Positions 2,726 through 25,799 of a stretch of 25,799 nt of DNA are shown piece by piece. Under the pieces are notes generated by a model. That model searched no databases. It was not told the origin of the DNA and saw only the letters and a list, made by a program, of their open reading frames with translations. The position numbers and the translations under genes were made by a program. The stretch spans positions 434,001 to 459,799 of the forward strand of contig NW_026515692.1 of the NCBI RefSeq assembly GCF_025526975.1, in the 5' to 3' direction. The DNA comes from Fimicolochytrium jonesii (lineage: Eukaryota). Position 1 is the stretch's first letter; every line of letters begins with the position of its first letter.

Positions 2726-5600
2726 ATGTCCCTTATTGTCGCTGCACATCCTGTCCCGTTCAACGTGATTCAGGAGCTTGTTGGAAGCAAAACACTTCCC
2801 GTCCTTACAGGTATGTGCAATCTAAGCGTGGATCAAAATGTCACTTTACAAACTCTAACCGGAGCCACTCTCTTAGATACCAACTCGCACCGCTTTTATC
2901 TCCTGAAAGACTCGTGCGCCGGTTTTGCAGTCAACTACAGCAAAGTTCGGAGCATCATTCAGAGGGGCAAGCTCGCCATTACTAAGCTGGTGCTCAGTGG
3001 GCAGGAGCTACACCAGTTTAAAAGCATTGCCTTCTACGAAACTACGGCTTCGCACCTTGCCTTTGTCGATCAAACTGGTTTTGCGCAACTGCTACAGTTG
3101 TGCGGAGTCTCCGAAGCTGCTCGCGAGGGATTGTTGCGGGTAGAGGAGAACTCGGTGTCTTTTACACAAGGTATGTAGTAGTCTCGACCTAGATGACCCA
3201 GACGGACCCAGTTTGCAAAGCTCGGGAGCGCAACCTGGCTCCAAACCTTGCATCGCCGTTTGGCAGGGCGCCCTAGGTCGCTTAGGGTTAGGGTTAGGGT
3301 TAGTCCATGCTTTTATCGCCGCGCATTACTGATGGTCATAATCTGTCCCATTGTTTAGTTGCTGTTTCGCCTGCAGCCACACCAACTACACCAATATCGT
3401 CTGGTGCGGATGTTCCGTATCCCTCGCCGCCATCAGGAAGTGCCGCCTTTACGCCAGCGTCACACCCTAGTGGTACTGTTGGAACCAATGCTCCGTTATT
3501 CGAGCCGCGAGCCACACGCGACTGTGAGATGTCGGAGCAATCAACCCGCGAAACGAGCTTTAACAGAAGCTTCAACACCGAGTTCAACACCGGCACAAGC
3601 GACGCAGCATTCAGCGATGACGAAGACACAATTGAGTCGGATCTGCGACTTTCTAGAAGGGAAAAAATGACGGATGTAGACGACGCGGACCTTGCAAACG
3701 GAATAAAGTCGGTCATCAAATTCAAGTGGTAAGTACACTTGTAGATACAATCTTGGTTTCTTCCTGCGCCCTGTTTTACAAGGCGACTCAACTAAGCGTT
3801 GTTCTTGATACACTGTAGTTACACACTCCAGGACTTTGAAATGACGACGTTGAACCACTCCGAGTTCCACCACTTGCGAGAGTTTTTCAGCACCCCACGA
3901 CCGCGCGCCAAAGGAATCAACCGAGTGCGCAATCCTCAGACGATCGCCAAGAGTCGTGAACGAATTTGCGGGTTTCTCGGCTGGCTGAAGCAATCGGGAC
4001 GCGTAAAGCAACCATCGTTTAAAGACTTTCACGACTTGGACCTTTTCTTGGTGAGCGTCCCTCCCTTATTTGACAAGTGACATTTTTGGTAATATGTCCA
4101 TAACATTTGTCGCTCACCTGGTCGGTTAGGACAAGTATGTAGAAGGATATCTCGTAGGAATTCGCGGGCTGTCACACGGCTCCGTCGCAAACGCCATCAC
4201 AGCTGCGATAGATGTGCACAAATTTCTAGAGTCGGAATCGTCTACAAGACTGCCGGGAACAAAAAAGTCGATGAGCATCACACGTCTTCAAAGCTACCGA
4301 AACAGAAAGCAGACTCTTGCAGAGCGAGAGCGTCAAGCCACTGTAGATGAGGATGGATCGACAATTTTATGGGAGCAAGTTTGTAATGTGCTTCGGCAGT
4401 ACACGCAGCCAAAAGAACATTAACATATTCCACTCCAGTTTCTAGAAGCGATTCGCTGCCAGAAAAAAGTGGTCGACAGCCTGCTAGTTGACGCACAGGA
4501 CAGCCGGCTTCCGGCGCAAGTGCAAAAATACTTGGCGCTCGCTTTCTACGCGGCGATTCCACCCTCCAGAAGCAAAGAGATTCGACTTCTTTTGGACCGA
4601 ATCCTTACCGAGTCAGAAAGTCGAACCTCGCTACAAAATCACATCACCCTTGTTCAGGGGCGCCATGTGATTGTTGTAAGGTATGTGGATATGGTGGCGA
4701 GCGGTCATTTTTCCGCGGAACACTACCTTATCGTCTTTTGTTTCCACCCTCTTTTTCTTCCAGCGACTACAAAAACAGTCTTTATAATGGGACAAGAGAC
4801 GCCATCGAACTCCCTGACGATTCAAGCATAATTTTAAAGTATCTTACATACTTTCTCCAGCCGATAGTTCGTGCGCGAGTTACGTCGGGGAAAAAACACG
4901 GCTATCTTTTCTGCAAAAACAACGGTGACGCATTCGACAGCGCGGGCGAATGGTCGGCGTATCTCGCCAGGATTGTCGAAAAGCACATCGGAATCGCCAA
5001 CATTTCCAGTAACGCCTTGCGCCATTCTTTCACGACGTATATGGAGTCTGCAGTGGAAAGTGACCATGTTCGGCTACGCGAGAGCACCGCGTACGCAATG
5101 CGCCATAACATCAGGTATAGTACCGCAATGGCTATCTGCGGAGTGTGAGGACAGTATTGGGACTGAATTCTTGACATCTGTAAAGGATCCAGCAACACAC
5201 ATACAACAACACCCCGTCTATAGAACGCAAAAGAAAAGCGGTCGACTTTGCTAGTCGCGTGTTCAAGCGCATAGTGCTGGAAGATTCGGCAACGGAAGCG
5301 GACTCCGACAACGGCGCACCACCCCTTGGAGCACTTGTAGGAACGAAACTGCTAAATGGACGACCTGGATTTGGAAAAGTAGTGCGTATCGAGAACGCCA
5401 ACGCCATCATAATGCTATTAACGCCGCGCCAGACCGAAGGGGCAACTTTGAGCGAATATGTCGCTGACATCGGAAGTCTATTACGACGCAACATAGCTAG
5501 GGAGATTCTTTATCCTATTGATGGTGTTTATACTAGAGAGCAAGGGGTGTATGAGGTCTTTACGTCTTTAGAAGATGTGAAAAGGATGTTGGTACGGTAG
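2726..5600 (+). CDS. Spliced tyrosine recombinase/integrase, about 767 aa, 7 exons
   Basis: Exons 2726-3170, 3359-3728, 3819-4050, 4130-4378, 4439-4680, 4764-5114, 5186-5600; all six introns are GT-AG and phase-compatible (2304 nt CDS). Catalytic residues in canonical order: IPPSR (R), DYK (K), NALRH (HxxR with H>N), AMRH (H/W), QQHTY (Y). Linking of exon 1 to the rest is the least certain part. Confidence 0.85.
3282..3303 (+). repeat. Short interstitial telomeric tract (TTAGGG)3TTAG inside predicted intron 1 of the recombinase gene
   Basis: Read directly from the sequence; same orientation as the distal telomeric tracts. Confidence 0.9.
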
Positions 5601-6791
5601 CTGTCGATTCGTGGGAGCTTTGACGCGTGACGCGTGACGAGCTGTTAACAGCAATGAAAAAAGCGATTGTCCAATTTCAGAAGCAAAGAGATTCGACTTC
5701 TTTTGGACCGAATCCTTACCGAGTCAGAAAGTCGAACCTCGCTACAAAATCACATCACCCTTGTTCAGGGGCGCCATGTGATTGTTGTAAGGTATGTGGA
5801 TATGGTGGCGAGCGGTCATTTTTCCGCGGAACACTACCTTATCGTCTTTTGTTTCCACCCTCTTTTTCTTCCAGCGACTACAAAAACAGTCTTTATAATG
5901 GGACAAGAGACGCCATCGAACTCCCTGACGATTCAAGCATAATTTTAAAGTATCTTACATACTTTCTCCAGCCGATAGTTCGTGCGCGAGTTACGTCGGG
6001 GAAAAAACACGGCTATCTTTTCTGCAAAAACAACGGTGACGCATTCGACAGCGCGGGCGAATGGTCGGCGTATCTCGCCAGGATTGTCGAAAAGCACATC
6101 GGAATCGCCAACATTTCCAGTAACGCCTTGCGCCATTCTTTCACGACGTATATGGAGTCTGCAGTGGAAAGTGACCATGTTCGGCTACGCGAGAGCACCG
6201 CGTACGCAATGCGCCATAACATCAGGTATAGTACCGCAATGGCTATCTGCGGAGTGTGAGGACAGTATTGGGACTGAATTCTTGACATCTGTAAAGGATC
6301 CAGCAACACACATACAACAACACCCCGTCTATAGAACGCAAAAGAAAAGCGGTCGACTTTGCTAGTCGCGTGTTCAAGCGCATAGTGCTGGAAGATTCGG
6401 CAACGGAAGCGGACTCCGACAACGGCGCACCACCCCTTGGAGCACTTGTAGGAACGAAACTGCTAAATGGACGACCTGGATTTGGAAAAGTAGTGCGTAT
6501 CGAGAACGCCAACGCCATCATAATGCTATTAACGCCGCGCCAGACCGAAGGGGCAACTTTGAGCGAATATGTCGCTGACATCGGAAGTCTATTACGACGC
6601 AACATAGCTAGGGAGATTCTTTATCCTATTGATGGTGTTTATACTAGAGAGCAAGGGGTGTATGAGGTCTTTACGTCTTTAGAAGATGTGAAAAGGATGT
6701 TGGTACGGTAGCTGTCGATTCGTGGGAGCTTTGACGCGTGACGCGTGACGAGCTGTTAACAGCAATGAAAAAAGCGATTGTCCAATTTCAG
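4567..6791 (+). repeat. Direct tandem duplication, 1111-bp period, with CAG microhomology at the junction
   Basis: 4567-5680 matches 5678-6791; ORF pairs offset by 1111 translate identically (5259/6370, 4871/5982). Identity breaks at 4566/5677 and at 5681/6792. Confidence 0.95.
5678..6711 (+). pseudogene. Duplicated 3' half of the tyrosine recombinase gene (from the catalytic Arg codon through exon 7)
   Basis: Second copy of part of exon 5 and of exons 6-7; lacks its own N-terminal exons. Confidence 0.75.
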
Positions 6792-6925: not shown

Positions 6926-7166
6926 GAAAGAGCGATTGTCGCGTTAAGATCGACACGATGAAAGGGAAGAAAGAACGATTGTCGCGTTAAGGTCACACGC
7001 ACGATGAAAGGGGATGAAAGAGTGATTGTTCCTTTCAAAGTCAACAGGATGAAAGGGGAAGAAAGAGTGATTGTTCCATTCAAAGTCAACACGATGAAAG
7101 GGGAAGAAAGAGCGATTGTTCCATTCAAAGTCAACACGATGAAAGGGGAAGAAAGAGCGATTGTCC
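6926..7166 (+). repeat. 45-bp minisatellite with core GAAAGAG(C/T)GATTGT
   Basis: Core at 6926, 6969, 7016, 7061, 7106, 7151 (spacing 43, 47, 45, 45, 45); degenerate cores at about 6767, 6815, 6874. Confidence 0.9.
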
Positions 7167-10165: not shown

Positions 10166-11041
10166 ATGTCAGACCCCTCTATAGAAAACGCGATGGAAAA
10201 CGCAGTCATCACAATCGAGCAGCGCATCGACAAAGACCTGATGAGCTGTGTCATCTGTTTGGATGAGCTCGACTTTCCCATTATTCAATGCTCAAATGGA
10301 CCGCATTTCATATGTGCGGCGTGCGTTCCAAGAATCGACAAATGCCCAGTTTGTATGAGCGGAGGCTTCCTACACAATCGTCACCTCGAAAACCAGCTGA
10401 TGCCCTTTGCAACATCTTGCACGGTCCCAGGCTGCGATCGCAAGTGCCTTCCTTGGGCAATAAAAAGTCATGAGCGCCGATGCGCTCATAGCTTATTTCC
10501 CTGCTTTATCTGCGGGAAACAGGTCTCTCTCCATGGTCTCGCAAAGCATTACAGCAGCGAATGCTCATGTGTGTATCAGGTGCACGACCGTTCAGGGCAT
10601 CAAAGAGAAAGCCTTTTAACAATAGGCAGCTTGCATCCCGTCTTGCCTTTAAGAGACGAAAACAGCATATGCCTCTACTCTCAGGGCGTTTACCTTTTAT
10701 GCAAGCCGATAGGTGGGAACTTAAGCGAGCACCCTTATTGGGGCGTCGTTGCTGTACAAAAGCCGCGCAACACGCCGACAGCAGAACCTCCTTTTGTAAC
10801 GCTTCGCGTCCACGACAAGACTGGGCAATCTTTGTCGTTTTTGTCGGTAACAATCAGAGCATTTAACGAGCTGAAACACGTTACGGCAGCGCATGCAGCC
10901 CTTATCCCCGCCATCAGCAATGACACGGAGCTCCATTGTAGTGTTCAAAGCAATAACATCTGGTTTTCCCCGCTATCAGGCATCCACTACGACGATGCGA
11001 CAGATAATGACGATGACCTCGACAACGACGATGCGACATGA
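10166..11041 (+). CDS. SINA/SIAH-like RING E3 ubiquitin ligase with TRAF-type zinc fingers
   Basis: C3HC4 RING CVIC..IIQCSNGPHFICAAC..CPVC followed by NRHLE and C/H zinc fingers (CTVPGC..HERRC..CFIC..HYSSEC); intronless; TATA-like TATATCTATAA upstream. Confidence 0.8.
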   Translation: MSDPSIENAMENAVITIEQRIDKDLMSCVICLDELDFPIIQCSNGPHFICAACVPRIDKCPVCMSGGFLHNRHLENQLMPFATSCTVPGCDRKCLPWAIKSHERRCAHSLFPCFICGKQVSLHGLAKHYSSECSCVYQVHDRSGHQRESLLTIGSLHPVLPLRDENSICLYSQGVYLLCKPIGGNLSEHPYWGVVAVQKPRNTPTAEPPFVTLRVHDKTGQSLSFLSVTIRAFNELKHVTAAHAALIPAISNDTELHCSVQSNNIWFSPLSGIHYDDATDNDDDLDNDDAT

Positions 11042-11061: not shown

Positions 11062-11739
11062 TCATCCGGGTCTCAGATTACCATAATCGACCCAGAATGC
11101 TATCACCTCCAAAAGCTCGTTCTTGCTCCCTTTAAACCACTCGCAATGTCCTTTGGTGGTTTTACAGCAGCACTCGATATGACCAAGCCATTTGTTTTTT
11201 GTCTTTAGTTCATTGTGTATCAAGCGCTCGCACAAGCGATGGCGGCTTACCTTCCAATACCCTTCTAAAGTAATAGGTTGTTTGCATTGCCTCTCCCACT
11301 GTTTTCCGCGCTTTACCGGTCCCACCTTTGTGTTTGTACAACCGATTTTATACTGTTCCAGTTCTACGGATTGATTTCCACTTTTCCGAAACATATATAT
11401 ATACCCCGGTTCGTCGTTGCCTTTTTCCTTGTCGGACAGCAGTACGCTAAGAACGCGAAGACAACTGTGTCCCTTTAGCCGATCGGCAATCAAATTTAAA
11501 TCATGATCTGGTGAGCAACGTTTTGATGTGCGGACAGGGACAGGTGGCGGCTCAATACAAATAGGACCCAAAGGTTGCGGTAAATGGGTCTGCGATTCTA
11601 ACGCTTGAGATTGCGATTGCAACCACTTGTTGCGCAATACTACTACAACCTTCTGGGGCAGAACGGACTTGATAAATAGGAAAAGTAAAGCACATATTGC
11701 TAGTAATTTAACGTGTCGCCAAAACTCGCATCTACGCAT
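11062..11739 (-). CDS. T5orf172/Mug113 (GIY-YIG-like) domain protein with a hydrophobic N-terminal segment
   Basis: PGYIYMF..YKIGCT..R..QW..C..ERLIHNEL..C..H.EWF motif series; N-terminal LLAICALLFLFI. Confidence 0.8.
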   Translation of the reverse strand: MRRCEFWRHVKLLAICALLFLFIKSVLPQKVVVVLRNKWLQSQSQALESQTHLPQPLGPICIEPPPVPVRTSKRCSPDHDLNLIADRLKGHSCLRVLSVLLSDKEKGNDEPGYIYMFRKSGNQSVELEQYKIGCTNTKVGPVKRGKQWERQCKQPITLEGYWKVSRHRLCERLIHNELKTKNKWLGHIECCCKTTKGHCEWFKGSKNELLEVIAFWVDYGNLRPG

Positions 11740-11838
11740 CTTACTGTTTCACCACAAATTACTGTAGCGACAGTGCGCCCGCATGTAGCGTGTTGTGTAC
11801 TTTTACGACGTGCGAATAATTAGAGCTCTGAGGTATAC

Positions 11839-12242
11839 TGCGAATAAATGGGCAACTCTTAATTTCGGCTTTATGCAAATTTGAATGATTAAATAATAAA
11901 AAGAAACAGATACTGAAAATAAATAGGCAACGTCTATGTCAGCTTTAGGCAGAATTGAATAATAAATAATAAAATAAATTAGATAATGCGAATAAATGGG
12001 CAACTCTTAATTTCGGTTTTTACGCAAAACTGAAAGATTGAATAATTAAATAATAAAAAGAAACAGATACTGAAAATAAATAGGCAACGTCTATGTCAGC
12101 TTTAGGCAAAATTGAATAATAATGCGAATAAATGGACAACTCTTAATTTCGGTTTTTACGCACAACTGAAAGATCGAATAATAAAAAATCGAAATGATGC
12201 ATATAAATAGGGAACGTCTAATGTCAGCTTTAGGCAAAATTG
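11839..12242 (+). repeat. AT-rich diverged tandem repeat, 3 copies (148- and 136-bp spacing)
   Basis: TGCGAATAAATGG..CAACTCTTAATTTCGG..ACGTCTA..TGTCAGCTTTAGGCA starting at 11839, 11987, 12123. Confidence 0.9.
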
Positions 12243-12797
12243 GATAAATGAACGACCAGAAGATAAGAACATCGAAATAATATATTGAGCTTGTTTTAAC
12301 TTCAAAACTTTCCAACAACCAGCGGATCCTCTTCCAATTAGTTGGTCCTGCGGTTGCAGGTGGTGCCTCACCTCCCTAAAACCTCTGGACGCACTCTATT
12401 ATCCAAGTGAGTACCGTTCCTTTATTTATTATTTTTTCCACAAATAGTGTAAAGAAAAATAAGAGTCCATAGGGTCTAGGGCTTTGCCGTCTTCAATAGT
12501 TTTGTATAAAAAGTCGGAAATAAATCGAAAAATTGACAATACAATCAATTTCTCAACCTATACAGCAGTATATATAGAAAAGTTTCAAGAGCGGGCTCAA
12601 CCCCTGAGCCCATGGACGCAAATTTATGGAACCGTTTTCCCCTACATGTCGGTACAGATTCGACTTACATATCGTCTGCCTGACTCGATGAATGGAGGGC
12701 GTCCACAGGTGGGAGCTCGCCAGCGTTTCCTGAGCTGTCAGAATTCTGCTCTTCTGTTCACTGAGTCATCACCGAAATCTGGAAGATTCCCGGGGTT

Positions 12798-12848
12798 ATG
12801 CCCCATATGCCCCATATGCCCCACATGCCCCATATGCCCCACATGCCC
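12798..12848 (+). repeat. 9-bp tandem repeat (ATGCCCCAY) x5.7
   Basis: Read directly; about 150 nt upstream of the Rep-like ORF. Confidence 0.9.
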
Positions 12849-13001
12849 AAGAAGCAGGGCATTGTAGACCTGCACGACTTAGCCATGACAACAAGAATTT
12901 GATTTAGTGTGAACACACGATTTACAACCCTCACCCTGCCATCCGTCCTTCCTACGCACACACGCGCACACAAACACATACAAACACACCTTTCAGCGGC
13001 A

Positions 13002-13439
13002 ATGAACGGCTCCGTAGACCCTTTCAAAGAAGTCGCAAAGTTTACAGACTATGCCGACTTCAAGCAGTGGTGCTCCCACAACAAACTCCCCCGTGGATAC
13101 GCAAAGGCAGTTTGGGATTTCCACGAGAAGGAAGCCCGCGATATGGAATATAAACGCGAACGGCGCCACAACATTTTCGAGGACGGCGACCCTATCGCTG
13201 GAACCATCACGTCCCCTGCACTGCTCGACCTTCGCTTCGACGCACCCATCCGCAAGACCCTTGTTCTTGTCGGTCCAGCCGGTTCCGGGAAGGTTCGATG
13301 GGTTCTCGAAAACAGCCCCAAGCCGATCTACATCATTCGTTCCCCAAGCGACCTCCGCGGCTTCAGCAAGTTCCTGCAGCTTACAGGACTGTTCCGGGTT
13401 ATGGGTTATATTTGGTGGTCCGGAAAGTGTCAAAAATAG
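13002..13439 (+). pseudogene. Truncated CRESS-DNA-virus-like Rep (SF3 helicase) fragment; endogenous viral element
   Basis: KTLVLVGPAGSGKVRWVLENSPKPIYIIRSPSDLRGF has a Walker A (GKT>GKV) and the following W..KP..DL.F pattern seen in CRESS Reps. No HUH domain and no in-frame Walker B; the ORF runs into the array unit at 13381. Confidence 0.65.
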
Positions 13440-13864
13440 GTGCTAGCAATGTTCAGGGGCGTCTTACTGTACTGTACATAAAATTTTGGGGCATGTTTTC
13501 CACTCAATGCTCCCGGAAAATCCGTTTTTCAGATTTTTTACTATGAAAATGTGACCAAAACGCATTTTCTGAAACTCTGAGTGGATGGAATTTGCTTAAA
13601 GTGGAATATGTCTCAGAAAACATCCCCAAAAACATCTAGGAACCTTCATCTACTCTAGTATTCATCAACTCCTGGCACTTTTTGTTTCCAGGCAATATGG
13701 GGGTGTTCTCCAGTTGGCGGCGAATGACTCATTTTGGTTTGCTCTCAATTTGCTACATGTTCAAATCCTTTTGAGGCCCAAATACTTTCTTTTCTTCCAC
13801 TGCTCCTCCTGATGGTGGAGGATGGCAAATGCCTTTTTGCATTGCAATACATGGATATGACAGG

Positions 13865-14450
13865 GTGTTTGTCAACCAGCAAATCATGCAAAAAGCATGC
13901 AGTGCATGTCCGTTTGCATGCACTATGTCATCCGCACCACCTTGGACACCTGAGGAAAGTTGTGCGGATTTGAAAGATAATATAGTTACGGAAGTGGAAC
14001 CAGGGAGATTCAATGACTATTGAAGGAGCTATGGCACACGTAAGTCCCCAGGGGTGGGACTTAGAGAATTTTCAAAGATTTTGGTGACTCATGGCGCAGG
14101 TTTGATTCTCAGAGGGGGCCAGGCCTTCTTTTCTTTTTTTCCTCCTTCAAAATGTCTTCAAATACGTCTAGCATTGCTTGACAGTGTCAGGAAACAATCA
14201 AAAAGCTGAGAAGTGCAGGTAAAAAGTGTTTTTGGCCGATCTACAAGCAAAACATGCGAAAAACCGGCGGTGCGTGTCCATTCGCATGCACTACATCATC
14301 CGTTCCACCTTGGCCATCCAAGGCAATGGTGCGGATTCAAAAGATAGTATAGGTACGGAAGGGCAACCAGGGAGATTCAATCACTATTGACAGAGCTATG
14401 GCACCCGCAAGCTCCAATGGGTGGGACTTAGAGAATTTTCGAAAATTTTG
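13865..14450 (+). repeat. Pair of diverged ~200-bp hairpin-rich modules upstream of each 545-aa ORF copy
   Basis: CCACCTTGG..GCGGATT..ACCAGGGAGATTCAAT..AGCTATGGCAC..GTGGGACTTAG at about 13865-14080 and 14226-14450; again at about 16729-16862 (partial) and 17055-17280, and in the later units. Confidence 0.85.
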
Positions 14451-14501
14451 CATTTTGCGCCGTCTGGTTGACCTGACCAAACACAGGTAACATTCAACCG
14501 A

Positions 14502-14590
14502 CAGACATTGGCATAGTGGCAAGTGCTAATGTTATCTGAACTAGTGCCCCAAGTTCCAACCCCGGTTTTGCTGGGGATACTTTTTTTTTT
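14502..14590 (+). ncRNA. Degenerate tRNA-like / Pol III promoter-like element, also at +2830, +5091, +7358 and +10188
   Basis: A-box TGGCATAGTGG at 14509-14519 with a D-arm GCAT/GTGC; T-loop-like GTTCCAACC at 14553-14561 at tRNA spacing; T10 run at 14581-14590. Anticodon and acceptor stems pair poorly. Confidence 0.35.
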
Positions 14591-14983
14591 CTTTTTCCCG
14601 CGCCACCCGAAACACGATGTGGGCGTAACGAAAGTTGTAGCCAGATATATGTTCTCATAGTTAAAGTCATCTCAGATGTGCAATTAAGCTGTAAACGGCT
14701 GCAGAAAATGCAAAAAACAAAATAGGATTGACGCTTTTCTCAAAATCCAACACCACCTGGAATGCATTAAAGCCAGTCCATACACATGTCCTTTACCTAG
14801 GAACCCCCTACAGATGAATTCCCATAGTCCCCGGACACCCATAGCGCACTCTATACAACTCTACTATGCACGCATACTGGTTAGGGTTAGCCTGCGCCCT
14901 ATCTGGCGAATACGTTTTCAATGCATTTCATCGATGGCAAATAGCGCAGTTGCATAAGATACTCAATTCACAACCGAGGGTGC

Positions 14984-16621
14984 ATGGTTCAAACCTTGCG
15001 TTCGACACAACAACAGAGGGATTTTTCCGGGGGCAAAATAAATATCACCATGCACCCATATCAATACGATGTGGACTGGATGGCGGTTACGATCAGTTTA
15101 ACTGATCTTAACCAGCTGTTCGATAGGTCCACCATTGTCCAAATGGCGGGCGCTCGTCCGCCGTTCAAGGATGACCCATTCTATAAGGAATGGATTACGG
15201 TTGTGAGCCAACCGTTCATACTGAGCATCCCGCCGAGTCGGGGTGTTAGAGAGGGGATCATTGAGGGATTATATAGGGACCATGGAATAATTGTGCGGGG
15301 GAGTGACAGCCCTAATAGCACGATTCAGGGCAGACAGCATGTGGCGTTGGATACCCTGATTGGGACCTTGTCGGAATGCGTTGAAGGGGGAATGGTTAGG
15401 ATAGTGCAGTACGGGATGAAGGCTTACTGGGAGACCATGGCAGCGAAGGATGCGGTCTACGAGAGTTCAGGGGGCCGGTCGAATACCTTCGACATAGGAT
15501 TGATGATCAGGAGCATGGATATCCCGGTGCTGAGGGGACGAGATGAGGCAGGGGATGAGACGTTCCCAATGTTCGGGCCCTTGGGGAAGGGATTTGGGAG
15601 TGTAAGCTTCGATGAGGGCCTAGTTTCAGTGACAGTGTACCCAAGAATCGTACATGCTCTCAAAGCCTACGCATCGAATATATCGATGAAGACTCCGAAG
15701 GTGATGAGGAGTTTGAGGGGACGGAAGGAAACCTTGGGGGGCCTGAGGCGATGGTTAAGAGGGAATATGGGGAAGTTGGGGGGAGTCAGGATTGAGGCTA
15801 GAGTGCAAGCCCCTACCGTAGCAGCGGCGATTAAGGTGGTGGAGGGCCTCAAGATCCTTGACCTTGAGACGGTGGTTGGAATCCTGGGAGAAGAATCGGT
15901 TCGACTAGTACAGGTGGAAGACTACCTTCGAAACCTGGATGAGATCTGGATAGCAGCAAAGGAGCGCGTATTCAGAGGCAGTCGAGACACCCAGGCGGTA
16001 ACACCTGAGCAAGCCCAGCGATTCAGAGATGTGCTCAACGCTTTCGGGTTCAACCCAGGCTGGAGGAAAAGGCAGGCACCTACCATTACCAAAGATGGTG
16101 CCTGGTGGTTGAGCCCGGAGGCTGGGCTACCACCTGCGGTTGAGCAGGATCCCCGAGCGGAGTTGGAGGAGTTGTACAGTCAGTATGGGGCACAGCTTAG
16201 ATGCGAATGTGGAGGAAGCATATTCCATAAGGTGGGGGGGAAGAAGGAGTTCAGATTGAGGTGCGCCAGATACACCCATGCATTGTGTAGTGAAACCTGG
16301 AGGGCAAACCAGATAAGGGATAGGATTGAGGAAGTGATTAGGGTACACCGGGAAGCTGAGGATAGGGAAGCTCAAGAGAGGGAGGCAGCCCAGCAGCGAG
16401 AGGCTGGAGATTCAGCAAGACGGGACCAAGTGGCAGAGGCCAAGGAGGATATCACAGCAAGGGCGAAGTTCAGGAAGCATAGTAGGGGGGAGCGGTGGAA
16501 TTGGGTACGAGGTTCAGGATTAGTGGGAAGTACCTGGTATGGCAGCATAGAGGAATGTGTGGATGCAATCTGGGAGGAGTTTGGGGAGAATTGGGAGCAG
16601 CATGTAATGATACGATTGTAA
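14984..16621 (+). CDS. 545-aa element-encoded protein; tentative Rep_trans-like core plus C-terminal Zn ribbon
   Basis: Long intronless ORF; motifs YDVDWMAVT, QYGMK, FDIG, VTVYP, GGVRIEARV; C407xC409..C427..C435. The ORF is secure, the product assignment is inference. Confidence 0.85.
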   Translation: MVQTLRSTQQQRDFSGGKINITMHPYQYDVDWMAVTISLTDLNQLFDRSTIVQMAGARPPFKDDPFYKEWITVVSQPFILSIPPSRGVREGIIEGLYRDHGIIVRGSDSPNSTIQGRQHVALDTLIGTLSECVEGGMVRIVQYGMKAYWETMAAKDAVYESSGGRSNTFDIGLMIRSMDIPVLRGRDEAGDETFPMFGPLGKGFGSVSFDEGLVSVTVYPRIVHALKAYASNISMKTPKVMRSLRGRKETLGGLRRWLRGNMGKLGGVRIEARVQAPTVAAAIKVVEGLKILDLETVVGILGEESVRLVQVEDYLRNLDEIWIAAKERVFRGSRDTQAVTPEQAQRFRDVLNAFGFNPGWRKRQAPTITKDGAWWLSPEAGLPPAVEQDPRAELEELYSQYGAQLRCECGGSIFHKVGGKKEFRLRCARYTHALCSETWRANQIRDRIEEVIRVHREAEDREAQEREAAQQREAGDSARRDQVAEAKEDITARAKFRKHSRGERWNWVRGSGLVGSTWYGSIEECVDAIWEEFGENWEQHVMIRL

Positions 16622-17813
16622 TAGATTGACTACAAGTGTGTAATACAATATCTGGGTAAACATGTGGGTGGAAATATTTTTGCTTCCCGTGAGAAGGTGT
16701 CTACTATACAACACTTCATCAGTTCAAACCGTACCACCTTGGACACCCAAGAAAAGTTGTGCGGATTCAAAAGATGGTATAGTTATGGAAGTGGAACCAG
16801 GGAGATTCAATGACTATTGAACAAGCTATGGCACACGTAAGTTCCTAGGAGTGGGACTTAGCACAATTTGAGAAAACATATCAGAGGAACTGGAGAACAC
16901 ACTCCTGGGGACTTAGCAAATTGGCGCAGGTTCGATTCTCAGAGGGAGCAAGGCCTTCTTTTCTTTTTTTCTCCTTCAAAACATCTTCAAATGTGTCTAG
17001 GAGTCCTCAACAGTGTCAGGAAATGATCAAAAAGCTGAGAAGTGCAGGCAAAAAGTGTTTTTGGCCTGTCGACAAGCAAAATATGCGAAAAGCATGCGGT
17101 GCGTGTCCATTTGCATGCCCTACGTCATCCGTACCACCTTGGACACCCAAAGAAAGTTGCGCGGATTCAAAAGATAGTATAGTTACGGAAGTGGAACCAG
17201 GGAGATTCAATCACTGTTGACAGAGCTATGGCACCCGCAAGCTCCAATGGGTGGGACTTAGAGAATTTTCGAAAATTTTGCATTTTGCGCCGTCTGGTTG
17301 ACCCGACCAAACACAGGTAACATTCTACCGACAGACATTGGCATAGTGGCAAGTGCTAATGTTATCTGAACTACTGCCCCAAGTTCCAACCCCGGTTTTG
17401 CTGGGGATACTTTTTTTTTTCTTTTTCCTGTGCCACCCGAAACACGATGTGGGCGTAACGAAAGTTGTAGCCAGATATATGTTCTCATAGTTAAAGTCAT
17501 CTCAGATGCGCAATTAAGCTGTAAACGGCTGCAGAAAATGCAAAAAACAAAATAGGATTGACGCTTTTCTCAAAATCCAACACCACCTGGAATGCATTAA
17601 AGCCAGTCCATACACATGTCCTTTACCTAGGAACCCCCTACAGATGAATTCCCATAGTCCCCGGACACCCATAGCGCACTCTATACAACTCTACTATGCA
17701 CGCATACTGGTTAGGGTTAGCCTGCGCCCTATCTGGCGAATACGTTTTCAATGCATTTCATCGATGGCAAATAGCGCAGTTGCATAAGATACTCAATTCA
17801 CAACCGAGGGTGC

Positions 17814-18338
17814 ATGGTTCAAACCTTGCGTTCGACACAACAACAGAGGGATTTTTCCGGGGGCAAAATAAATATCACCATGCACCCATATCAATACGAT
17901 GTGGACTGGATGGCGGTTACGATCAGTTTAACTGATCTTAACCAGCTGTTCGATAGGTCCACCATTGTCCAAATGGCGGGCGCTCGTCCGCCGTTCAAGG
18001 ATGACCCATTCTATAAGGAATGGATTACGGTTGTGAGCCAACCGTTCATACTGAGCATCCCGCCGAGTCGGGGTGTTAGAGAGGGGATCATTGAGGGATT
18101 ATATAGGGACCATGGAATAATTGTGCGGGGGAGTGACAGCCCTAATAGCACGATTCAGGGCAGACAGCATGTGGCGTTGGATACCCTGATTGGGACCTTG
18201 TCGGAATGCGTTGAAGGGGGAATGGTTAGGATAGTGCAGTACGGGATGAAGGCTTACTGGGAGACCATGGCAGCGAAGGATGCGGTCTACGAGAGTTCAG
18301 GGGGCCGGTCGAATACCTTCGACATAGGATTGATGATC
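17814..18338 (+). pseudogene. Copy of the 545-aa ORF truncated after codon 175 by telomere addition
   Basis: Matches 14984-15508, then one C and (TTAGGG)22. Confidence 0.9.
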
Positions 18339-18339
18339 C

Positions 18340-18471
18340 TTAGGGTTAGGGTTAGGGTTAGGGTTAGGGTTAGGGTTAGGGTTAGGGTTAGGGTTAGGGT
18401 TAGGGTTAGGGTTAGGGTTAGGGTTAGGGTTAGGGTTAGGGTTAGGGTTAGGGTTAGGGTTAGGGTTAGGG
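18340..18471 (+). repeat. Interstitial telomeric tract (TTAGGG)22
   Basis: 132 nt of perfect repeat. Confidence 0.98.
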
Positions 18472-20074
18472 TTACAGGACTGTTCCGGGTTATGGGTTAT
18501 ATTTGGTGGTCCGGAAAGTGTCAAAAATAGGTGCTAGCAATGTTCAGGGGCGTCTTACTGTACTGTACATAAAATTTTGGGGCATGTTTTCCACTCAATG
18601 CTCCCGGAAAATCCGTTTTTCAGATTTTTTACTATGAAAATGTGACCAAAACGCATTTTCTGAAACTCTGAGTGGATGGAATTTGCTTAAAGTGGAATAT
18701 GTCTCAGAAAACATCCCCAAAAACATCTAGGAACCTTCATCTACTCTAGTATTCATCAACTCCTGGCACTTTTTGTTTCCAGGCAATATGGGGGTGTTCT
18801 CCAGTTGGCGGCGAATGACTCATTTTGGTTTGCTCTCAATTTGCTACATGTTCAAATCCTTTTGAGGCCCAAATACTTTCTTTTCTTCCACTGCTCCTCC
18901 TGATGGTGGAGGATGGCAAATGCCTTTTTGCATTGCAATACATGGATATGACAGGGTGTTTGTCAACCAGCAAATCATGCAAAAAGCATGCAGTGCATGT
19001 CCGTTTGCATGCACTATGTCATCCGCACCACCTTGGACACCTGAGGAAAGTTGTGCGGATTTGAAAGATAATATAGTTACGGAAGTGGAACCAGGGAGAT
19101 TCAATGACTATTGAAGGAGCTATGGCACACGTAAGTCCCCAGGGGTGGGACTTAGAGAATTTTCAAAGATTTTGGTGACTCATGGCGCAGGTTTGATTCT
19201 CAGAGGGGGCCAGGCCTTCTTTTCTTTTTTTCCTCCTTCAAAATGTCTTCAAATACGTCTAGCATTGCTTGACAGTGTCAGGAAACAATCAAAAAGCTGA
19301 GAAGTGCAGGTAAAAAGTGTTTTTGGCCGATCTACAAGCAAAACATGCGAAAAACCGGCGGTGCGTGTCCATTCGCATGCACTACATCATCCGTTCCACC
19401 TTGGCCATCCAAGGCAATGGTGCGGATTCAAAAGATAGTATAGGTACGGAAGGGCAACCAGGGAGATTCAATCACTATTGACAGAGCTATGGCACCCGCA
19501 AGCTCCAATGGGTGGGACTTAGAGAATTTTCGAAAATTTTGCATTTTGCGCCGTCTGGTTGACCTGACCAAACACAGGTAACATTCAACCGACAGACATT
19601 GGCATAGTGGCAAGTGCTAATGTTATCTGAACTAGTGCCCCAAGTTCCAACCCCGGTTTTGCTGGGGATACTTTTTTTTTTCTTTTTCCCGCGCCACCCG
19701 AAACACGATGTGGGCGTAACGAAAGTTGTAGCCAGATATATGTTCTCATAGTTAAAGTCATCTCAGATGTGCAATTAAGCTGTAAACGGCTGCAGAAAAT
19801 GCAAAAAACAAAATAGGATTGACGCTTTTCTCAAAATCCAACACCACCTGGAATGCATTAAAGCCAGTCCATACACATGTCCTTTACCTAGGAACCCCCT
19901 ACAGATGAATTCCCATAGTCCCCGGACACCCATAGCGCACTCTATACAACTCTACTATGCACGCATACTGGTTAGGGTTAGCCTGCGCCCTATCTGGCGA
20001 ATACGTTTTCAATGCATTTCATCGATGGCAAATAGCGCAGTTGCATAAGATACTCAATTCACAACCGAGGGTGC

Positions 20075-20599
20075 ATGGTTCAAACCTTGCGTTCGACACA
20101 ACAACAGAGGGATTTTTCCGGGGGCAAAATAAATATCACCATGCACCCATATCAATACGATGTGGACTGGATGGCGGTTACGATCAGTTTAACTGATCTT
20201 AACCAGCTGTTCGATAGGTCCACCATTGTCCAAATGGCGGGCGCTCGTCCGCCGTTCAAGGATGACCCATTCTATAAGGAATGGATTACGGTTGTGAGCC
20301 AACCGTTCATACTGAGCATCCCGCCGAGTCGGGGTGTTAGAGAGGGGATCATTGAGGGATTATATAGGGACCATGGAATAATTGTGCGGGGGAGTGACAG
20401 CCCTAATAGCACGATTCAGGGCAGACAGCATGTGGCGTTGGATACCCTGATTGGGACCTTGTCGGAATGCGTTGAAGGGGGAATGGTTAGGATAGTGCAG
20501 TACGGGATGAAGGCTTACTGGGAGACCATGGCAGCGAAGGATGCGGTCTACGAGAGTTCAGGGGGCCGGTCGAATACCTTCGACATAGGATTGATGATC
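20075..20599 (+). pseudogene. Truncated copy of the 545-aa ORF (codons 1-175)
   Basis: Same breakpoint GATGATC|C|TTAGGG as at 18338. Confidence 0.9.
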
Positions 20600-20600
20600 C

Positions 20601-20738
20601 TTAGGGTTAGGGTTAGGGTTAGGGTTAGGGTTAGGGTTAGGGTTAGGGTTAGGGTTAGGGTTAGGGTTAGGGTTAGGGTTAGGGTTAGGGTTAGGGTTAG
20701 GGTTAGGGTTAGGGTTAGGGTTAGGGTTAGGGTTAGGG
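20601..20738 (+). repeat. Interstitial telomeric tract (TTAGGG)23
   Basis: 138 nt of perfect repeat. Confidence 0.98.
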
Positions 20739-22341
20739 TTACAGGACTGTTCCGGGTTATGGGTTATATTTGGTGGTCCGGAAAGTGTCAAAAATAGGTG
20801 CTAGCAATGTTCAGGGGCGTCTTACTGTACTGTACATAAAATTTTGGGGCATGTTTTCCACTCAATGCTCCCGGAAAATCCGTTTTTCAGATTTTTTACT
20901 ATGAAAATGTGACCAAAACGCATTTTCTGAAACTCTGAGTGGATGGAATTTGCTTAAAGTGGAATATGTCTCAGAAAACATCCCCAAAAACATCTAGGAA
21001 CCTTCATCTACTCTAGTATTCATCAACTCCTGGCACTTTTTGTTTCCAGGCAATATGGGGGTGTTCTCCAGTTGGCGGCGAATGACTCATTTTGGTTTGC
21101 TCTCAATTTGCTACATGTTCAAATCCTTTTGAGGCCCAAATACTTTCTTTTCTTCCACTGCTCCTCCTGATGGTGGAGGATGGCAAATGCCTTTTTGCAT
21201 TGCAATACATGGATATGACAGGGTGTTTGTCAACCAGCAAATCATGCAAAAAGCATGCAGTGCATGTCCGTTTGCATGCACTATGTCATCCGCACCACCT
21301 TGGACACCTGAGGAAAGTTGTGCGGATTTGAAAGATAATATAGTTACGGAAGTGGAACCAGGGAGATTCAATGACTATTGAAGGAGCTATGGCACACGTA
21401 AGTCCCCAGGGGTGGGACTTAGAGAATTTTCAAAGATTTTGGTGACTCATGGCGCAGGTTTGATTCTCAGAGGGGGCCAGGCCTTCTTTTCTTTTTTTCC
21501 TCCTTCAAAATGTCTTCAAATACGTCTAGCATTGCTTGACAGTGTCAGGAAACAATCAAAAAGCTGAGAAGTGCAGGTAAAAAGTGTTTTTGGCCGATCT
21601 ACAAGCAAAACATGCGAAAAACCGGCGGTGCGTGTCCATTCGCATGCACTACATCATCCGTTCCACCTTGGCCATCCAAGGCAATGGTGCGGATTCAAAA
21701 GATAGTATAGGTACGGAAGGGCAACCAGGGAGATTCAATCACTATTGACAGAGCTATGGCACCCGCAAGCTCCAATGGGTGGGACTTAGAGAATTTTCGA
21801 AAATTTTGCATTTTGCGCCGTCTGGTTGACCTGACCAAACACAGGTAACATTCAACCGACAGACATTGGCATAGTGGCAAGTGCTAATGTTATCTGAACT
21901 AGTGCCCCAAGTTCCAACCCCGGTTTTGCTGGGGATACTTTTTTTTTTCTTTTTCCCGCGCCACCCGAAACACGATGTGGGCGTAACGAAAGTTGTAGCC
22001 AGATATATGTTCTCATAGTTAAAGTCATCTCAGATGTGCAATTAAGCTGTAAACGGCTGCAGAAAATGCAAAAAACAAAATAGGATTGACGCTTTTCTCA
22101 AAATCCAACACCACCTGGAATGCATTAAAGCCAGTCCATACACATGTCCTTTACCTAGGAACCCCCTACAGATGAATTCCCATAGTCCCCGGACACCCAT
22201 AGCGCACTCTATACAACTCTACTATGCACGCATACTGGTTAGGGTTAGCCTGCGCCCTATCTGGCGAATACGTTTTCAATGCATTTCATCGATGGCAAAT
22301 AGCGCAGTTGCATAAGATACTCAATTCACAACCGAGGGTGC

Positions 22342-23979
22342 ATGGTTCAAACCTTGCGTTCGACACAACAACAGAGGGATTTTTCCGGGGGCAAAATAAA
22401 TATCACCATGCACCCATATCAATACGATGTGGACTGGATGGCGGTTACGATCAGTTTAACTGATCTTAACCAGCTGTTCGATAGGTCCACCATTGTCCAA
22501 ATGGCGGGCGCTCGTCCGCCGTTCAAGGATGACCCATTCTATAAGGAATGGATTACGGTTGTGAGCCAACCGTTCATACTGAGCATCCCGCCGAGTCGGG
22601 GTGTTAGAGAGGGGATCATTGAGGGATTATATAGGGACCATGGAATAATTGTGCGGGGGAGTGACAGCCCTAATAGCACGATTCAGGGCAGACAGCATGT
22701 GGCGTTGGATACCCTGATTGGGACCTTGTCGGAATGCGTTGAAGGGGGAATGGTTAGGATAGTGCAGTACGGGATGAAGGCTTACTGGGAGACCATGGCA
22801 GCGAAGGATGCGGTCTACGAGAGTTCAGGGGGCCGGTCGAATACCTTCGACATAGGATTGATGATCAGGAGCATGGATATCCCGGTGCTGAGGGGACGAG
22901 ATGAGGCAGGGGATGAGACGTTCCCAATGTTCGGGCCCTTGGGGAAGGGATTTGGGAGTGTAAGCTTCGATGAGGGCCTAGTTTCAGTGACAGTGTACCC
23001 AAGAATCGTACATGCTCTCAAAGCCTACGCATCGAATATATCGATGAAGACTCCGAAGGTGATGAGGAGTTTGAGGGGACGGAAGGAAACCTTGGGGGGC
23101 CTGAGGCGATGGTTAAGAGGGAATATGGGGAAGTTGGGGGGAGTCAGGATTGAGGCTAGAGTGCAAGCCCCTACCGTAGCAGCGGCGATTAAGGTGGTGG
23201 AGGGCCTCAAGATCCTTGACCTTGAGACGGTGGTTGGAATCCTGGGAGAAGAATCGGTTCGACTAGTACAGGTGGAAGACTACCTTCGAAACCTGGATGA
23301 GATCTGGATAGCAGCAAAGGAGCGCGTATTCAGAGGCAGTCGAGACACCCAGGCGGTAACACCTGAGCAAGCCCAGCGATTCAGAGATGTGCTCAACGCT
23401 TTCGGGTTCAACCCAGGCTGGAGGAAAAGGCAGGCACCTACCATTACCAAAGATGGTGCCTGGTGGTTGAGCCCGGAGGCTGGGCTACCACCTGCGGTTG
23501 AGCAGGATCCCCGAGCGGAGTTGGAGGAGTTGTACAGTCAGTATGGGGCACAGCTTAGATGCGAATGTGGAGGAAGCATATTCCATAAGGTGGGGGGGAA
23601 GAAGGAGTTCAGATTGAGGTGCGCCAGATACACCCATGCATTGTGTAGTGAAACCTGGAGGGCAAACCAGATAAGGGATAGGATTGAGGAAGTGATTAGG
23701 GTACACCGGGAAGCTGAGGATAGGGAAGCTCAAGAGAGGGAGGCAGCCCAGCAGCGAGAGGCTGGAGATTCAGCAAGACGGGACCAAGTGGCAGAGGCCA
23801 AGGAGGATATCACAGCAAGGGCGAAGTTCAGGAAGCATAGTAGGGGGGAGCGGTGGAATTGGGTACGAGGTTCAGGATTAGTGGGAAGTACCTGGTATGG
23901 CAGCATAGAGGAATGTGTGGATGCAATCTGGGAGGAGTTTGGGGAGAATTGGGAGCAGCATGTAATGATACGATTGTAA
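22342..23979 (+). CDS. Second intact copy of the 545-aa protein
   Basis: Translation identical to 14984-16621. Confidence 0.85.
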   Translation: MVQTLRSTQQQRDFSGGKINITMHPYQYDVDWMAVTISLTDLNQLFDRSTIVQMAGARPPFKDDPFYKEWITVVSQPFILSIPPSRGVREGIIEGLYRDHGIIVRGSDSPNSTIQGRQHVALDTLIGTLSECVEGGMVRIVQYGMKAYWETMAAKDAVYESSGGRSNTFDIGLMIRSMDIPVLRGRDEAGDETFPMFGPLGKGFGSVSFDEGLVSVTVYPRIVHALKAYASNISMKTPKVMRSLRGRKETLGGLRRWLRGNMGKLGGVRIEARVQAPTVAAAIKVVEGLKILDLETVVGILGEESVRLVQVEDYLRNLDEIWIAAKERVFRGSRDTQAVTPEQAQRFRDVLNAFGFNPGWRKRQAPTITKDGAWWLSPEAGLPPAVEQDPRAELEELYSQYGAQLRCECGGSIFHKVGGKKEFRLRCARYTHALCSETWRANQIRDRIEEVIRVHREAEDREAQEREAAQQREAGDSARRDQVAEAKEDITARAKFRKHSRGERWNWVRGSGLVGSTWYGSIEECVDAIWEEFGENWEQHVMIRL

Positions 23980-25171
23980 TAGATTGACTACAAGTGTGTA
24001 ATACAATATCTGGGTAAACATGTGGGTGGAAATATTTTTGCTTCCCGTGAGAAGGTGTCTACTATACAACACTTCATCAGTTCAAACCGTACCACCTTGG
24101 ACACCCAAGAAAAGTTGTGCGGATTCAAAAGATGGTATAGTTATGGAAGTGGAACCAGGGAGATTCAATGACTATTGAACAAGCTATGGCACACGTAAGT
24201 TCCTAGGAGTGGGACTTAGCACAATTTGAGAAAACATATCAGAGGAACTGGAGAACACACTCCTGGGGACTTAGCAAATTGGCGCAGGTTCGATTCTCAG
24301 AGGGAGCAAGGCCTTCTTTTCTTTTTTTCTCCTTCAAAACATCTTCAAATGTGTCTAGGAGTCCTCAACAGTGTCAGGAAATGATCAAAAAGCTGAGAAG
24401 TGCAGGCAAAAAGTGTTTTTGGCCTGTCGACAAGCAAAATATGCGAAAAGCATGCGGTGCGTGTCCATTTGCATGCCCTACGTCATCCGTACCACCTTGG
24501 ACACCCAAAGAAAGTTGCGCGGATTCAAAAGATAGTATAGTTACGGAAGTGGAACCAGGGAGATTCAATCACTGTTGACAGAGCTATGGCACCCGCAAGC
24601 TCCAATGGGTGGGACTTAGAGAATTTTCGAAAATTTTGCATTTTGCGCCGTCTGGTTGACCCGACCAAACACAGGTAACATTCTACCGACAGACATTGGC
24701 ATAGTGGCAAGTGCTAATGTTATCTGAACTACTGCCCCAAGTTCCAACCCCGGTTTTGCTGGGGATACTTTTTTTTTTCTTTTTCCTGTGCCACCCGAAA
24801 CACGATGTGGGCGTAACGAAAGTTGTAGCCAGATATATGTTCTCATAGTTAAAGTCATCTCAGATGCGCAATTAAGCTGTAAACGGCTGCAGAAAATGCA
24901 AAAAACAAAATAGGATTGACGCTTTTCTCAAAATCCAACACCACCTGGAATGCATTAAAGCCAGTCCATACACATGTCCTTTACCTAGGAACCCCCTACA
25001 GATGAATTCCCATAGTCCCCGGACACCCATAGCGCACTCTATACAACTCTACTATGCACGCATACTGGTTAGGGTTAGCCTGCGCCCTATCTGGCGAATA
25101 CGTTTTCAATGCATTTCATCGATGGCAAATAGCGCAGTTGCATAAGATACTCAATTCACAACCGAGGGTGC

Positions 25172-25696
25172 ATGGTTCAAACCTTGCGTTCGACACAACA
25201 ACAGAGGGATTTTTCCAGGGGCAAAATAAATATCACCATGCACCCATATCAATACGATGTGGACTGGATGGCGGTTACGATCAGTTTAACTGATCTTAAC
25301 CAGCTGTTCGATAGGTCCACCATTGTCCAAATGGCGGGCGCTCGTCCGCCGTTCAAGGATGACCCATTCTATAAGGAATGGATTACGGTTGTGAGCCAAC
25401 CGTTCATACTGAGCATCCCGCCGAGTCGGGGTGTTAGAGAGGGGATCATTGAGGGATTATATAGGGACCATGGAATAATTGTGCGGGGGAGTGACAGCCC
25501 TAATAGCACGATTCAGGGCAGACAGCATGTGGCGTTGGATACCCTGATTGGGACCTTGTCGGAATGCGTTGAAGGGGGAATGGTTAGGATAGTGCAGTAC
25601 GGGATGAAGGCTTACTGGGAGACCATGGCAGCGAAGGATGCGGTCTACGAGAGTTCAGGGGGCCGGTCGAATACCTTCGACATAGGATTGATGATC
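25172..25696 (+). pseudogene. Truncated copy of the 545-aa ORF (codons 1-175; G16R)
   Basis: Same breakpoint; G>A at 25217. Confidence 0.9.
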
Positions 25697-25697
25697 C

Positions 25698-25799
25698 TTA
25701 GGGTTAGGGTTAGGGTTAGGGTTAGGTTAGGTAGGTTAGGGTTAGGGTTAGGGTTAGGGTTAGGGTTAGGGTAGGGTTAGGGTTAAGGACTGTTCCGGG
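25698..25799 (+). repeat. Telomeric tract with variant repeats, followed by the first bases of another unit
   Basis: TTAGGG with TTAGG/TAGG/TAGGG variants, then TTAAGGACTGTTCCGGG (unit start lacking one C). Confidence 0.9.

Follow-up and report, generated by a model that had tools for sequence, protein, structure and literature searches.

Rep_trans enzymes (family PF02486), among them pT181 RepC, RepD (RepDE, 4CWC; RepDN, 4CWE), RepSTK1 (4CIJ), CTX RstA and the MOBT relaxases of Tn916 and ICEBs1, appear restricted to bacteria, according to the accessible text of a 2026 paper that adds an archaeal branch (PMC13107129). This branch, Rep-Arvir (DUF7845, PF25227), consists of archaeal TBP-fold initiators whose link to Rep_trans, in the same text, is by structure only (TM 0.49–0.54). 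In the consulted part of a further source, the viruses listed with TBP-fold initiators are those of bacteria and archaea (PMC13595969). A literature search, with subscription papers and Repbase Reports mostly outside its reach, returned neither a Rep_trans-type gene from a eukaryote nor a telomeric element that employs such a gene, from the texts that it covered.

IS91 uses a tyrosine nickase and has one fixed end and a variable end that carries donor-flanking DNA. Y′ elements occur in long and short forms, in head-to-tail arrays with telomere tracts. The eukaryotic rolling-circle transposons in the literature covered are all HUH-based, including the Replitrons, whose description leaves telomeres unmentioned in the portion consulted (PMC10288648); the consulted portion of PMC12730594 held nothing relevant to the comparison.

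Here we analyse an intact open reading frame (ORF) at 14984–16621 (+) of a 25,799-nucleotide stretch of Fimicolochytrium jonesii DNA, hereafter the window (RefSeq assembly GCF_025526975.1, contig NW_026515692.1, positions 434,001 to 459,799 of the forward strand). We see an even chance that the unit carrying it belongs, as an intact copy, to a class of DNA transposon not yet described in eukaryotes, with a TBP-fold (non-HUH) rolling-circle nickase and one true end, copied to the telomere and ligated to chromosome 3′ ends, so extending telomeres and capping broken chromosomes by DNA strand transfer and not by reverse transcription.

Units separated by telomere tracts

All features of the array lie on the plus strand, and every unit opens with TTACAGGACTG (the fourth without one base). 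The first, a long unit of 4,958 bp (13381–18338), is made up of an upstream region, the ORF, another copy of the upstream region and the 5′ part of the ORF. This second ORF copy amounts to its first 525 bases, after which, following GATGATC, a telomere tract of C + (TTAGGG)22 lies inside it (18339–18471). A short unit of 2,128 bp (18472–20599), identical to 13381–15508, is followed by C + (TTAGGG)23 (20600–20738), added at the same point. The second long unit, again of 4,958 bp (20739–25696), differs from the first by one base and carries a second complete and identical ORF at 22342–23979; beyond it, an imperfect telomere tract leads into the opening of a fourth unit (25697–25799), with a noisy tract and one base missing at the junction, and here the window stops. 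All three units have a common distal end, the healing point after GATGATC, and the 5′-only copies of the ORF, beginning at 17814, 20075 and 25172, each run into TTAGGG tracts. Because TTAGGG stands on the plus strand, the ORF is directed towards the telomere. The array copy number may be misassembled, since the end of the window is probably also that of the contig.

At the healing junctions (18325–18345, 20586–20606 and 25683–25703) a single C falls outside both the ORF and the TTAGGG phase. It completes a short hairpin, AGGAT/ATCCT (z −2.4), which suggests a brief fold-back before telomerase acted.

The proximal end meets two kinds of target. At 18472 and 20739 the unit start is preceded by GGG of a telomere tract, and at 13381–13387 (+) the same TTACAGG is fused, with no telomere tract, directly to a P-loop ORF (12909–13380, +) whose Walker A coding sequence (GPAGSGK) precedes it and which the unit start cuts off. 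Family searches, including Pfam and PHROGs, gave no assignment for this truncated ORF, which we presume to resemble the helicase part of CRESS-virus Reps. GC content falls from 0.50–0.61 before 13381 to 0.36–0.46 after it, and the CpG observed/expected ratio, 1.11 over the whole left part, is 0.65 in the unit, so we take 13381 to be a true boundary. The TTA of TTA|CAGG may be unit sequence or a target preference. The start lacks a strong hairpin (z 0.02 to −1.25). Two copies of GGGTTA stand shortly after it (at 13396 and 13403, spanning 13396–13408), and another telomere-like word, GGTTAGGGTTAG, occupies 14879–14890, 105 bases upstream of the ORF; such words are possible sites for telomere-binding proteins.

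The sequence-only reading had envisaged a single-gene replicon or transposon of about 2.8 kb, a size that the array does not support: 2,830 bp is only the spacing of the internal duplication, and the units between tracts measure 4,958, 2,128 and 4,958 bp. In the long unit the final 829 bp of the two internal copies show no difference; upstream of that stretch the copies diverge, with four of the last six differences falling at CpG sites. The 2,830-bp repeat lacks defined ends and a strong hairpin. Upstream of the ORF lie two degenerate copies of a repeat with a period of about 370 bp (13870–14450, +), and repeat comparison located two further copies at 16729–17280 (+). The four are 81–86% alike, with interrupted frames that read as a decayed CxxC-containing peptide, and the upstream copies have no match to an Rfam family.

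The left part of the window contains several other features. A lone interstitial (TTAGGG)3 at 3282–3302 (+), oriented as the terminal tracts are and with no unit after it, is possibly the scar of an older healing event. At 4100–6791 (+) there is an apparently spliced tyrosine-recombinase-like gene (Phage_integrase, E 0.0076, under the cut-off), presumably Crypton-like, with a perfect 1,114-bp tandem duplication (4567–5680 / 5678–6791); an apparent GT–AG intron is present in a neighbouring gene, which together with the telomere tracts marks the host as a eukaryote. A Sina-type RING gene (10166–11041, +; E 6e-8) and a convergent T5orf172/MUG113 gene (11062–11739, −; E 3e-15) sit in a gene-dense block of high CpG content. 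A 45-bp tandem repeat of 5.3 copies (6926–7164) and an AT-rich repeat of about 140–157 bp (11835–12247) complete the set.

Head-to-tail units with short telomere tracts between them, in long and short versions, are a feature shared with Y′/TLH subtelomeres, MoTeR and Athena/Terminon elements. The present unit differs from these in encoding neither the helicase of Y′/TLH nor a reverse transcriptase (RT), in having its ORF on the G-strand and directed outwards, and in that its innermost copy has no telomere tract on the inner side. The main alternative to a self-mobilising element, less probable in our view, is that the ORF encodes a Rep_trans-fold nickase and the host made the array by telomere recombination (loop-back or break-induced replication, as in Y′/MoTeR arrays without telomerase). 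The real substrate of the enzyme would then lie elsewhere, for example in a 2,830-bp circle popped out of the internal repeat, which would fit such a pop-out although no circle was observed, or in a larger element of which the unit is a remnant. D-loop or telomere loop-back recombination amplifies telomere-separated units in Pyricularia without telomerase, as the accessible part of that study describes, and so yields the same kind of array with no element enzyme (PMC8381367). The common healing point and the long units one base apart look like the result of one recent amplification; taking exactly 2,830 bp out of the long unit gives the short one, and 829 bp of identical repeat are there to recombine through; and TTA could be a 3-base microhomology. 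Against this, a compositional boundary and a gene truncation fall on exactly the base where the unit starts, that start does not vary between telomeric and non-telomeric junctions, microhomology repair into a tract of 22 repeats would rarely land on the last one, and the 2,830-bp repeat is without defined ends or a strong hairpin. The near identity of the units fits a self-mobilising element and host recombination alike. A defined end is favoured by the exact match between start and element boundary at both kinds of target, as seen at a single non-telomeric junction and one chromosome end.

The encoded protein and its homologues

The ORF is open across 545 codons and is the sole long ORF of the unit, as six-frame translation confirmed. 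Both full-length homologues begin near M23 (15050), whose ATG stands in the context ATCACCATG; for these reasons translation probably starts there, giving a protein of probably 523 aa, although we number residues in the 545-aa frame throughout. The residues singled out in the sequence-only reading (D29, D31, W32, D170, Y219, R269, E271 and R273) are all where it placed them, as is its CxC-x17-C-x7-C cluster (C407/C409/C427/C435). Its statement that RT, DDE, HUH and Walker motifs are lacking agrees with Pfam and NCBIfam, which gave no RT, DDE, HUH or helicase match; in Pfam, a Walker motif or helicase match was likewise absent from the unit's ORF.

Three regions can be distinguished. A predicted TBP-fold rolling-circle endonuclease domain with following helices (15056–15979, +; residues 25–332) is delineated by the structure model and conservation. 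The Cys cluster (16160–16333, +) is zinc-ribbon-like and weakly matches zinc ribbons of recombinases and topoisomerase I, in each case under the curated cut-off (PF13408, E 0.013; for homologue P0006, PF01396, E 0.015; for homologue P0002, TopA in NCBIfam, E 0.099). The third is a small C-terminal domain of strands followed by a helix (16436–16618, +; pLDDT blocks 83–89), which is conserved in the long homologues and has no Pfam match. It is possibly a DNA-binding module and may resemble AP2/arm-binding domains.

Three homologue searches, scoring 7,996, 7,998 and 7,995 candidates (lengths 194–954 aa), yielded four clusters besides the query (P0002, P0003-5, P0006 and P0007) that are 36–52% identical; all homologues are unnamed or annotated 'hypothetical'. 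Among pattern matches, confirmed relatives numbered 0 of 37 and 0 of 84 in viral contigs and 0 of 601 and 0 of 85 in metagenome contigs, and tblastn against phages and plasmids gave matches only at E ≥ 1.

In the 199 columns covered by all five family rows, 47 are invariant. The expectation that the proposed catalytic residues would be conserved was borne out: D170, Y219, R269 and E271 are each invariant in 5/5 rows, as is R273, and D29, D31 and W32 are invariant in the three rows that reach them. D170 is the sole invariant Asp among ten in these columns, and E249 and E271 are the two invariant Glu among 14. Four of the six Tyr are also invariant (Y143, Y219, Y229 and Y314), and Y219 is therefore not singled out by conservation alone. 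It is flanked by Lys at −2 in four of five rows and by an invariant Arg at +2 (R221), which may be compared with R189-x-Y191-x-K193. All four long rows retain the Cys cluster, though with modifications.

An ordered three-motif pattern, xD...Y.[KRH]...R.E, is present in all five rows and in 0.06–0.16% of 5,000 shuffles per sequence, and it also matched 16 of 19 Rep_trans and 8 of 13 Phage_CRI proteins; because the pattern was written after the query had been seen, this is a weak control.

Fold and motifs compared with Rep_trans

Sequence comparison gave no link to described families. No family member scanned matched PF02486 or PF05144 in Pfam, PHROGs and NCBIfam held no relevant match, and PDB sequence searches returned nothing under E 0.36. 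We also built our own profiles from 19 Rep_trans and 13 Phage_CRI sequences, excluding the shortest and broken matches, which gave eight hhalign templates. Against these the family scored a probability below 1%, lower than the reversed-query control, whereas the positive comparison, of Rep_trans with Phage_CRI profiles, matched at 91–95%. With a relaxed threshold, and as a lead only, hhalign placed D170 on RxD in three of four templates, Y219 on YxK in three of four and R-x-E on RxE in two of four.

Structure prediction points to a relationship. The model of residues 25–332, which used no templates and family rows only (five distinct sequences, none from Rep_trans), reached pLDDT 79.5 and pTM 0.78; a full-length model from three sequences was poor (pLDDT 52), had no Foldseek match at E ≤ 0.001 and was excluded from evidence. 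For the domain model, Foldseek returned from the PDB only RepDE (4cwc, 7e-4) and RepDN (4cwe, 8.4e-4) at E ≤ 0.001, both with probability 0.97 and with TM-scores of 0.28–0.32; the third match had E 0.08, and RepSTK1 ranked 7–8. Foldseek TM-scores are only 0.28–0.33 overall. A fold unrelated to Rep_trans is not what the prediction gives. VIA, run over 48,161 PDB chains, placed RepSTK1 first (Z 7.3, rmsd 4.0, 180 residues aligned over model 1–280) and RepDE second (Z 5.4, rmsd 4.9, 153 aligned), followed by five TBP chains (Z 4.0–5.1) and the first other fold (3.6). VIA-align on the top 989 Foldseek chains gave RepSTK1 (Z 7.3, rmsd 4.0, 180 aligned), RepDN (6.0) and RepDE (5.4), then thirteen TBP chains (4.4–5.0), with other folds at 3.1 or below. 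The best Z here is below 8, a range in which, the tool cautions, a match may represent a common arrangement. Between Rep_trans proteins and TBP the published Z is 5.4 (PMC4797284), and Rep first with TBP next is thus the order expected of a relative.

The ESM Atlas gave a similar picture. For the query, Rep_trans/Phage_CRI clusters were the top four of ten structure rows (TM 0.35–0.41, under the naming bar), and the top feature matches were unnamed clusters or RdRP; for P0002, all nine Pfam-named entries among 30 feature matches were Phage_CRI or Rep_trans (score 0.93–0.94).

In the model, D31, D170, Y219 and E271 each lie on a β-strand of their own, in the order of RepDE D46, D142, Y191 and E214. 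The structural alignments begin at model 1, equivalent to RepSTK1 3 and RepDE 40; provided that no gap interrupts the first seven residues, D31 would fall on the metal ligands D9 of RepSTK1 and D46 of RepDE (PMC4797284). We regard D31, D170 and E271 as candidate metal ligands and Y219 as the candidate nucleophile.

Measured against the published motifs (PMC5714925), the family keeps some Rep_trans features and has lost others. The Asp of motif N′, which in RepDE is the first metal ligand, D46, has its counterpart in D31, invariant in three of three rows and on the first strand. An invariant strand-borne Tyr lies between motifs I and IV (Y219, model 195 on strand 190–196, 5/5), and the RxE of motif IV is present as R269-I-E271-x-R273 (5/5, strand 244–251), without the preceding W/L. 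For motif I, D170 is invariant on its strand in 5/5 rows, and the R position reads T/S/T/T/E; for motif II (T/SxY/ExG) the family has G-[FY]-G-S-[VL] before the Tyr strand, in which only the S/T could correspond, to the invariant S206; and for motif III (YxKxxE) all five rows have Y-P-R-x-V-H. The caveat of the sequence-only reading, that its match was partial, was apt: RxD lacks R and the second D, and YxKxxE is replaced by YPRxVH. The HUH motif is absent; H224 is the sole invariant His, and the fold matches are TBP-like, in place of the RRM-like Rep fold of HUH transposons.

With N′, the strand-borne Tyr and RxE present and RxD, motif II and YxKxxE absent (PMC5714925), we do not file the protein in PF02486. 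The proposal of a Rep_trans-type initiator accordingly holds for the fold, on structure searches, the ESM Atlas and conservation, and fails for PF02486 membership, on the lack of a profile match and the altered motifs I–III. Judged from the model, the protein very probably has the TBP-like fold of rolling-circle nickases and is probably a working nickase. Given the failure of Pfam and hhalign and the altered motifs I–III, it would represent a new eukaryotic branch of these enzymes; by analogy it is predicted to work like PF02486 enzymes, as archaeal Rep-Arvir does.

The same data speak to a highly improbable reading in which the ORF product binds DNA through a TBP fold or catalyses some other chemistry, and its structural matches reflect a shared curved sheet only. 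The Z-scores of 7.3 and 5.4 are indeed under 8 and little above that of TBP (5.1), profile comparison is negative and motifs I–III are altered. Yet Rep structures outrank TBP in all three structure searches, the invariant D, D, Y and R-x-E stand on strands in Rep_trans order, and the language-model features of the 36%-identical P0002 lead to Rep_trans/Phage_CRI and not to TBP. Confident matches to another transposase or host family, which would have pointed elsewhere, were likewise missing from the Pfam, PHROGs, NCBIfam and PDB searches.

Among described nickases, the Rep_trans proteins are the best structural matches in the PDB, alike in the predicted TBP-like sheet and in the order D...D...Y...R-x-E, all on strands; they differ in being encoded on bacterial replicons and not at a eukaryotic telomeric locus, and the ORF protein adds a C-terminal zinc ribbon and an extra domain. 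Phage_CRI proteins (inovirus gpII, PF05144) share an N-terminal D-W strand, a G-x-[ST]-V-x-[FW]-like strand before the Tyr and a G-x-[VL]-R-x-E-x-[KR] strand, and with Rep_trans they account for 9 of the 30 ESM Atlas feature matches of P0002; here, however, hhalign was not significant, there are no phage genes and the family alignment has no SGNP-type motif. Rep-Arvir, as described in the accessible text, resembles the ORF protein in its structure-only link to Rep_trans, divergent Tyr motif and appended DNA-binding domains (PMC13107129), and differs in that Pfam scans gave no PF25227 match and that a zinc ribbon takes the place of its wHTH.

Proposed mechanism and its implications

Direct observations are the array itself, a start that is fixed at both kinds of target, an ORF pointing outwards and the conservation of D31, D170, Y219 and E271. 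Taking these with the predicted fold, we lean slightly towards the ORF product being the enzyme of a one-ended, self-mobilising DNA element that caps telomeres or chromosome ends. D31, D170 and E271 would bind a divalent metal, the strand would be nicked at the fixed start TTA|CAGG, and Y219 would form a 5′-phosphotyrosine at the unit start. Host replication would then displace the strand out to the telomere, and no second terminus would be needed, because the displaced copy would carry the unit together with its telomere tract. A 3′-OH on the G-strand of a telomere or broken chromosome would attack the adduct. The outcome would be head-to-tail arrays of [unit + (TTAGGG)n] with one shared distal end, in which the innermost unit caps a broken gene; the short unit would have arisen when recombination popped out the 2,830-bp internal repeat. 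Outward ORF polarity is what would be expected if the 5′-phosphotyrosine end joins a chromosome 3′-OH, and a fixed 5′ end on the sense strand, joined to the G-strand both of telomeres and of a broken gene, with a shared, tract-bearing distal end is what nicking, run-off displacement and strand transfer would be expected to leave.

Such an element would share with Helitrons, Replitrons and IS91 its proposed Tyr-nickase chemistry, a fixed end and a variable other end carrying donor-flanking DNA; it differs from them in that their HUH fold is unrelated, no helicase is found in the unit and its targets are chromosome ends. A non-autonomous telomeric retroelement (MoTeR2- or Terminon-like, with RT supplied elsewhere and the ORF as antisense cargo), which would also fit the fixed proximal end, the telomere-capped distal truncation and the telomere-like words near the start (13396, 13403), and has a parallel in the Rep ORFs that Terminons carry according to the consulted part of PMC6431247, is very improbable, since the RT and 3′ hammerhead of MoTeR/Athena/Terminon elements are missing within the unit (Pfam gave no RT, further long ORFs are absent, and the minus strand has no hammerhead core), 11500–18600 has no Rfam match at E ≤ 1, the distal ends are identical and not ragged, and the ORF would be antisense to the copied RNA.

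The idea of a self-mobilising nickase element is directly testable, because the present copy, short and intact, lies in one exon and offers candidates for both the nick site and the catalytic residues. If true, the locus would hold a jumping element of telomeres whose type has not been described. If the enzyme also mobilises the unit, chromosomes could be capped by a route based on DNA, in addition to those through telomerase, retroelements and recombination. A eukaryotic TBP-fold nickase, if confirmed, would extend the Rep_trans superfamily to eukaryotes, the third domain of life.
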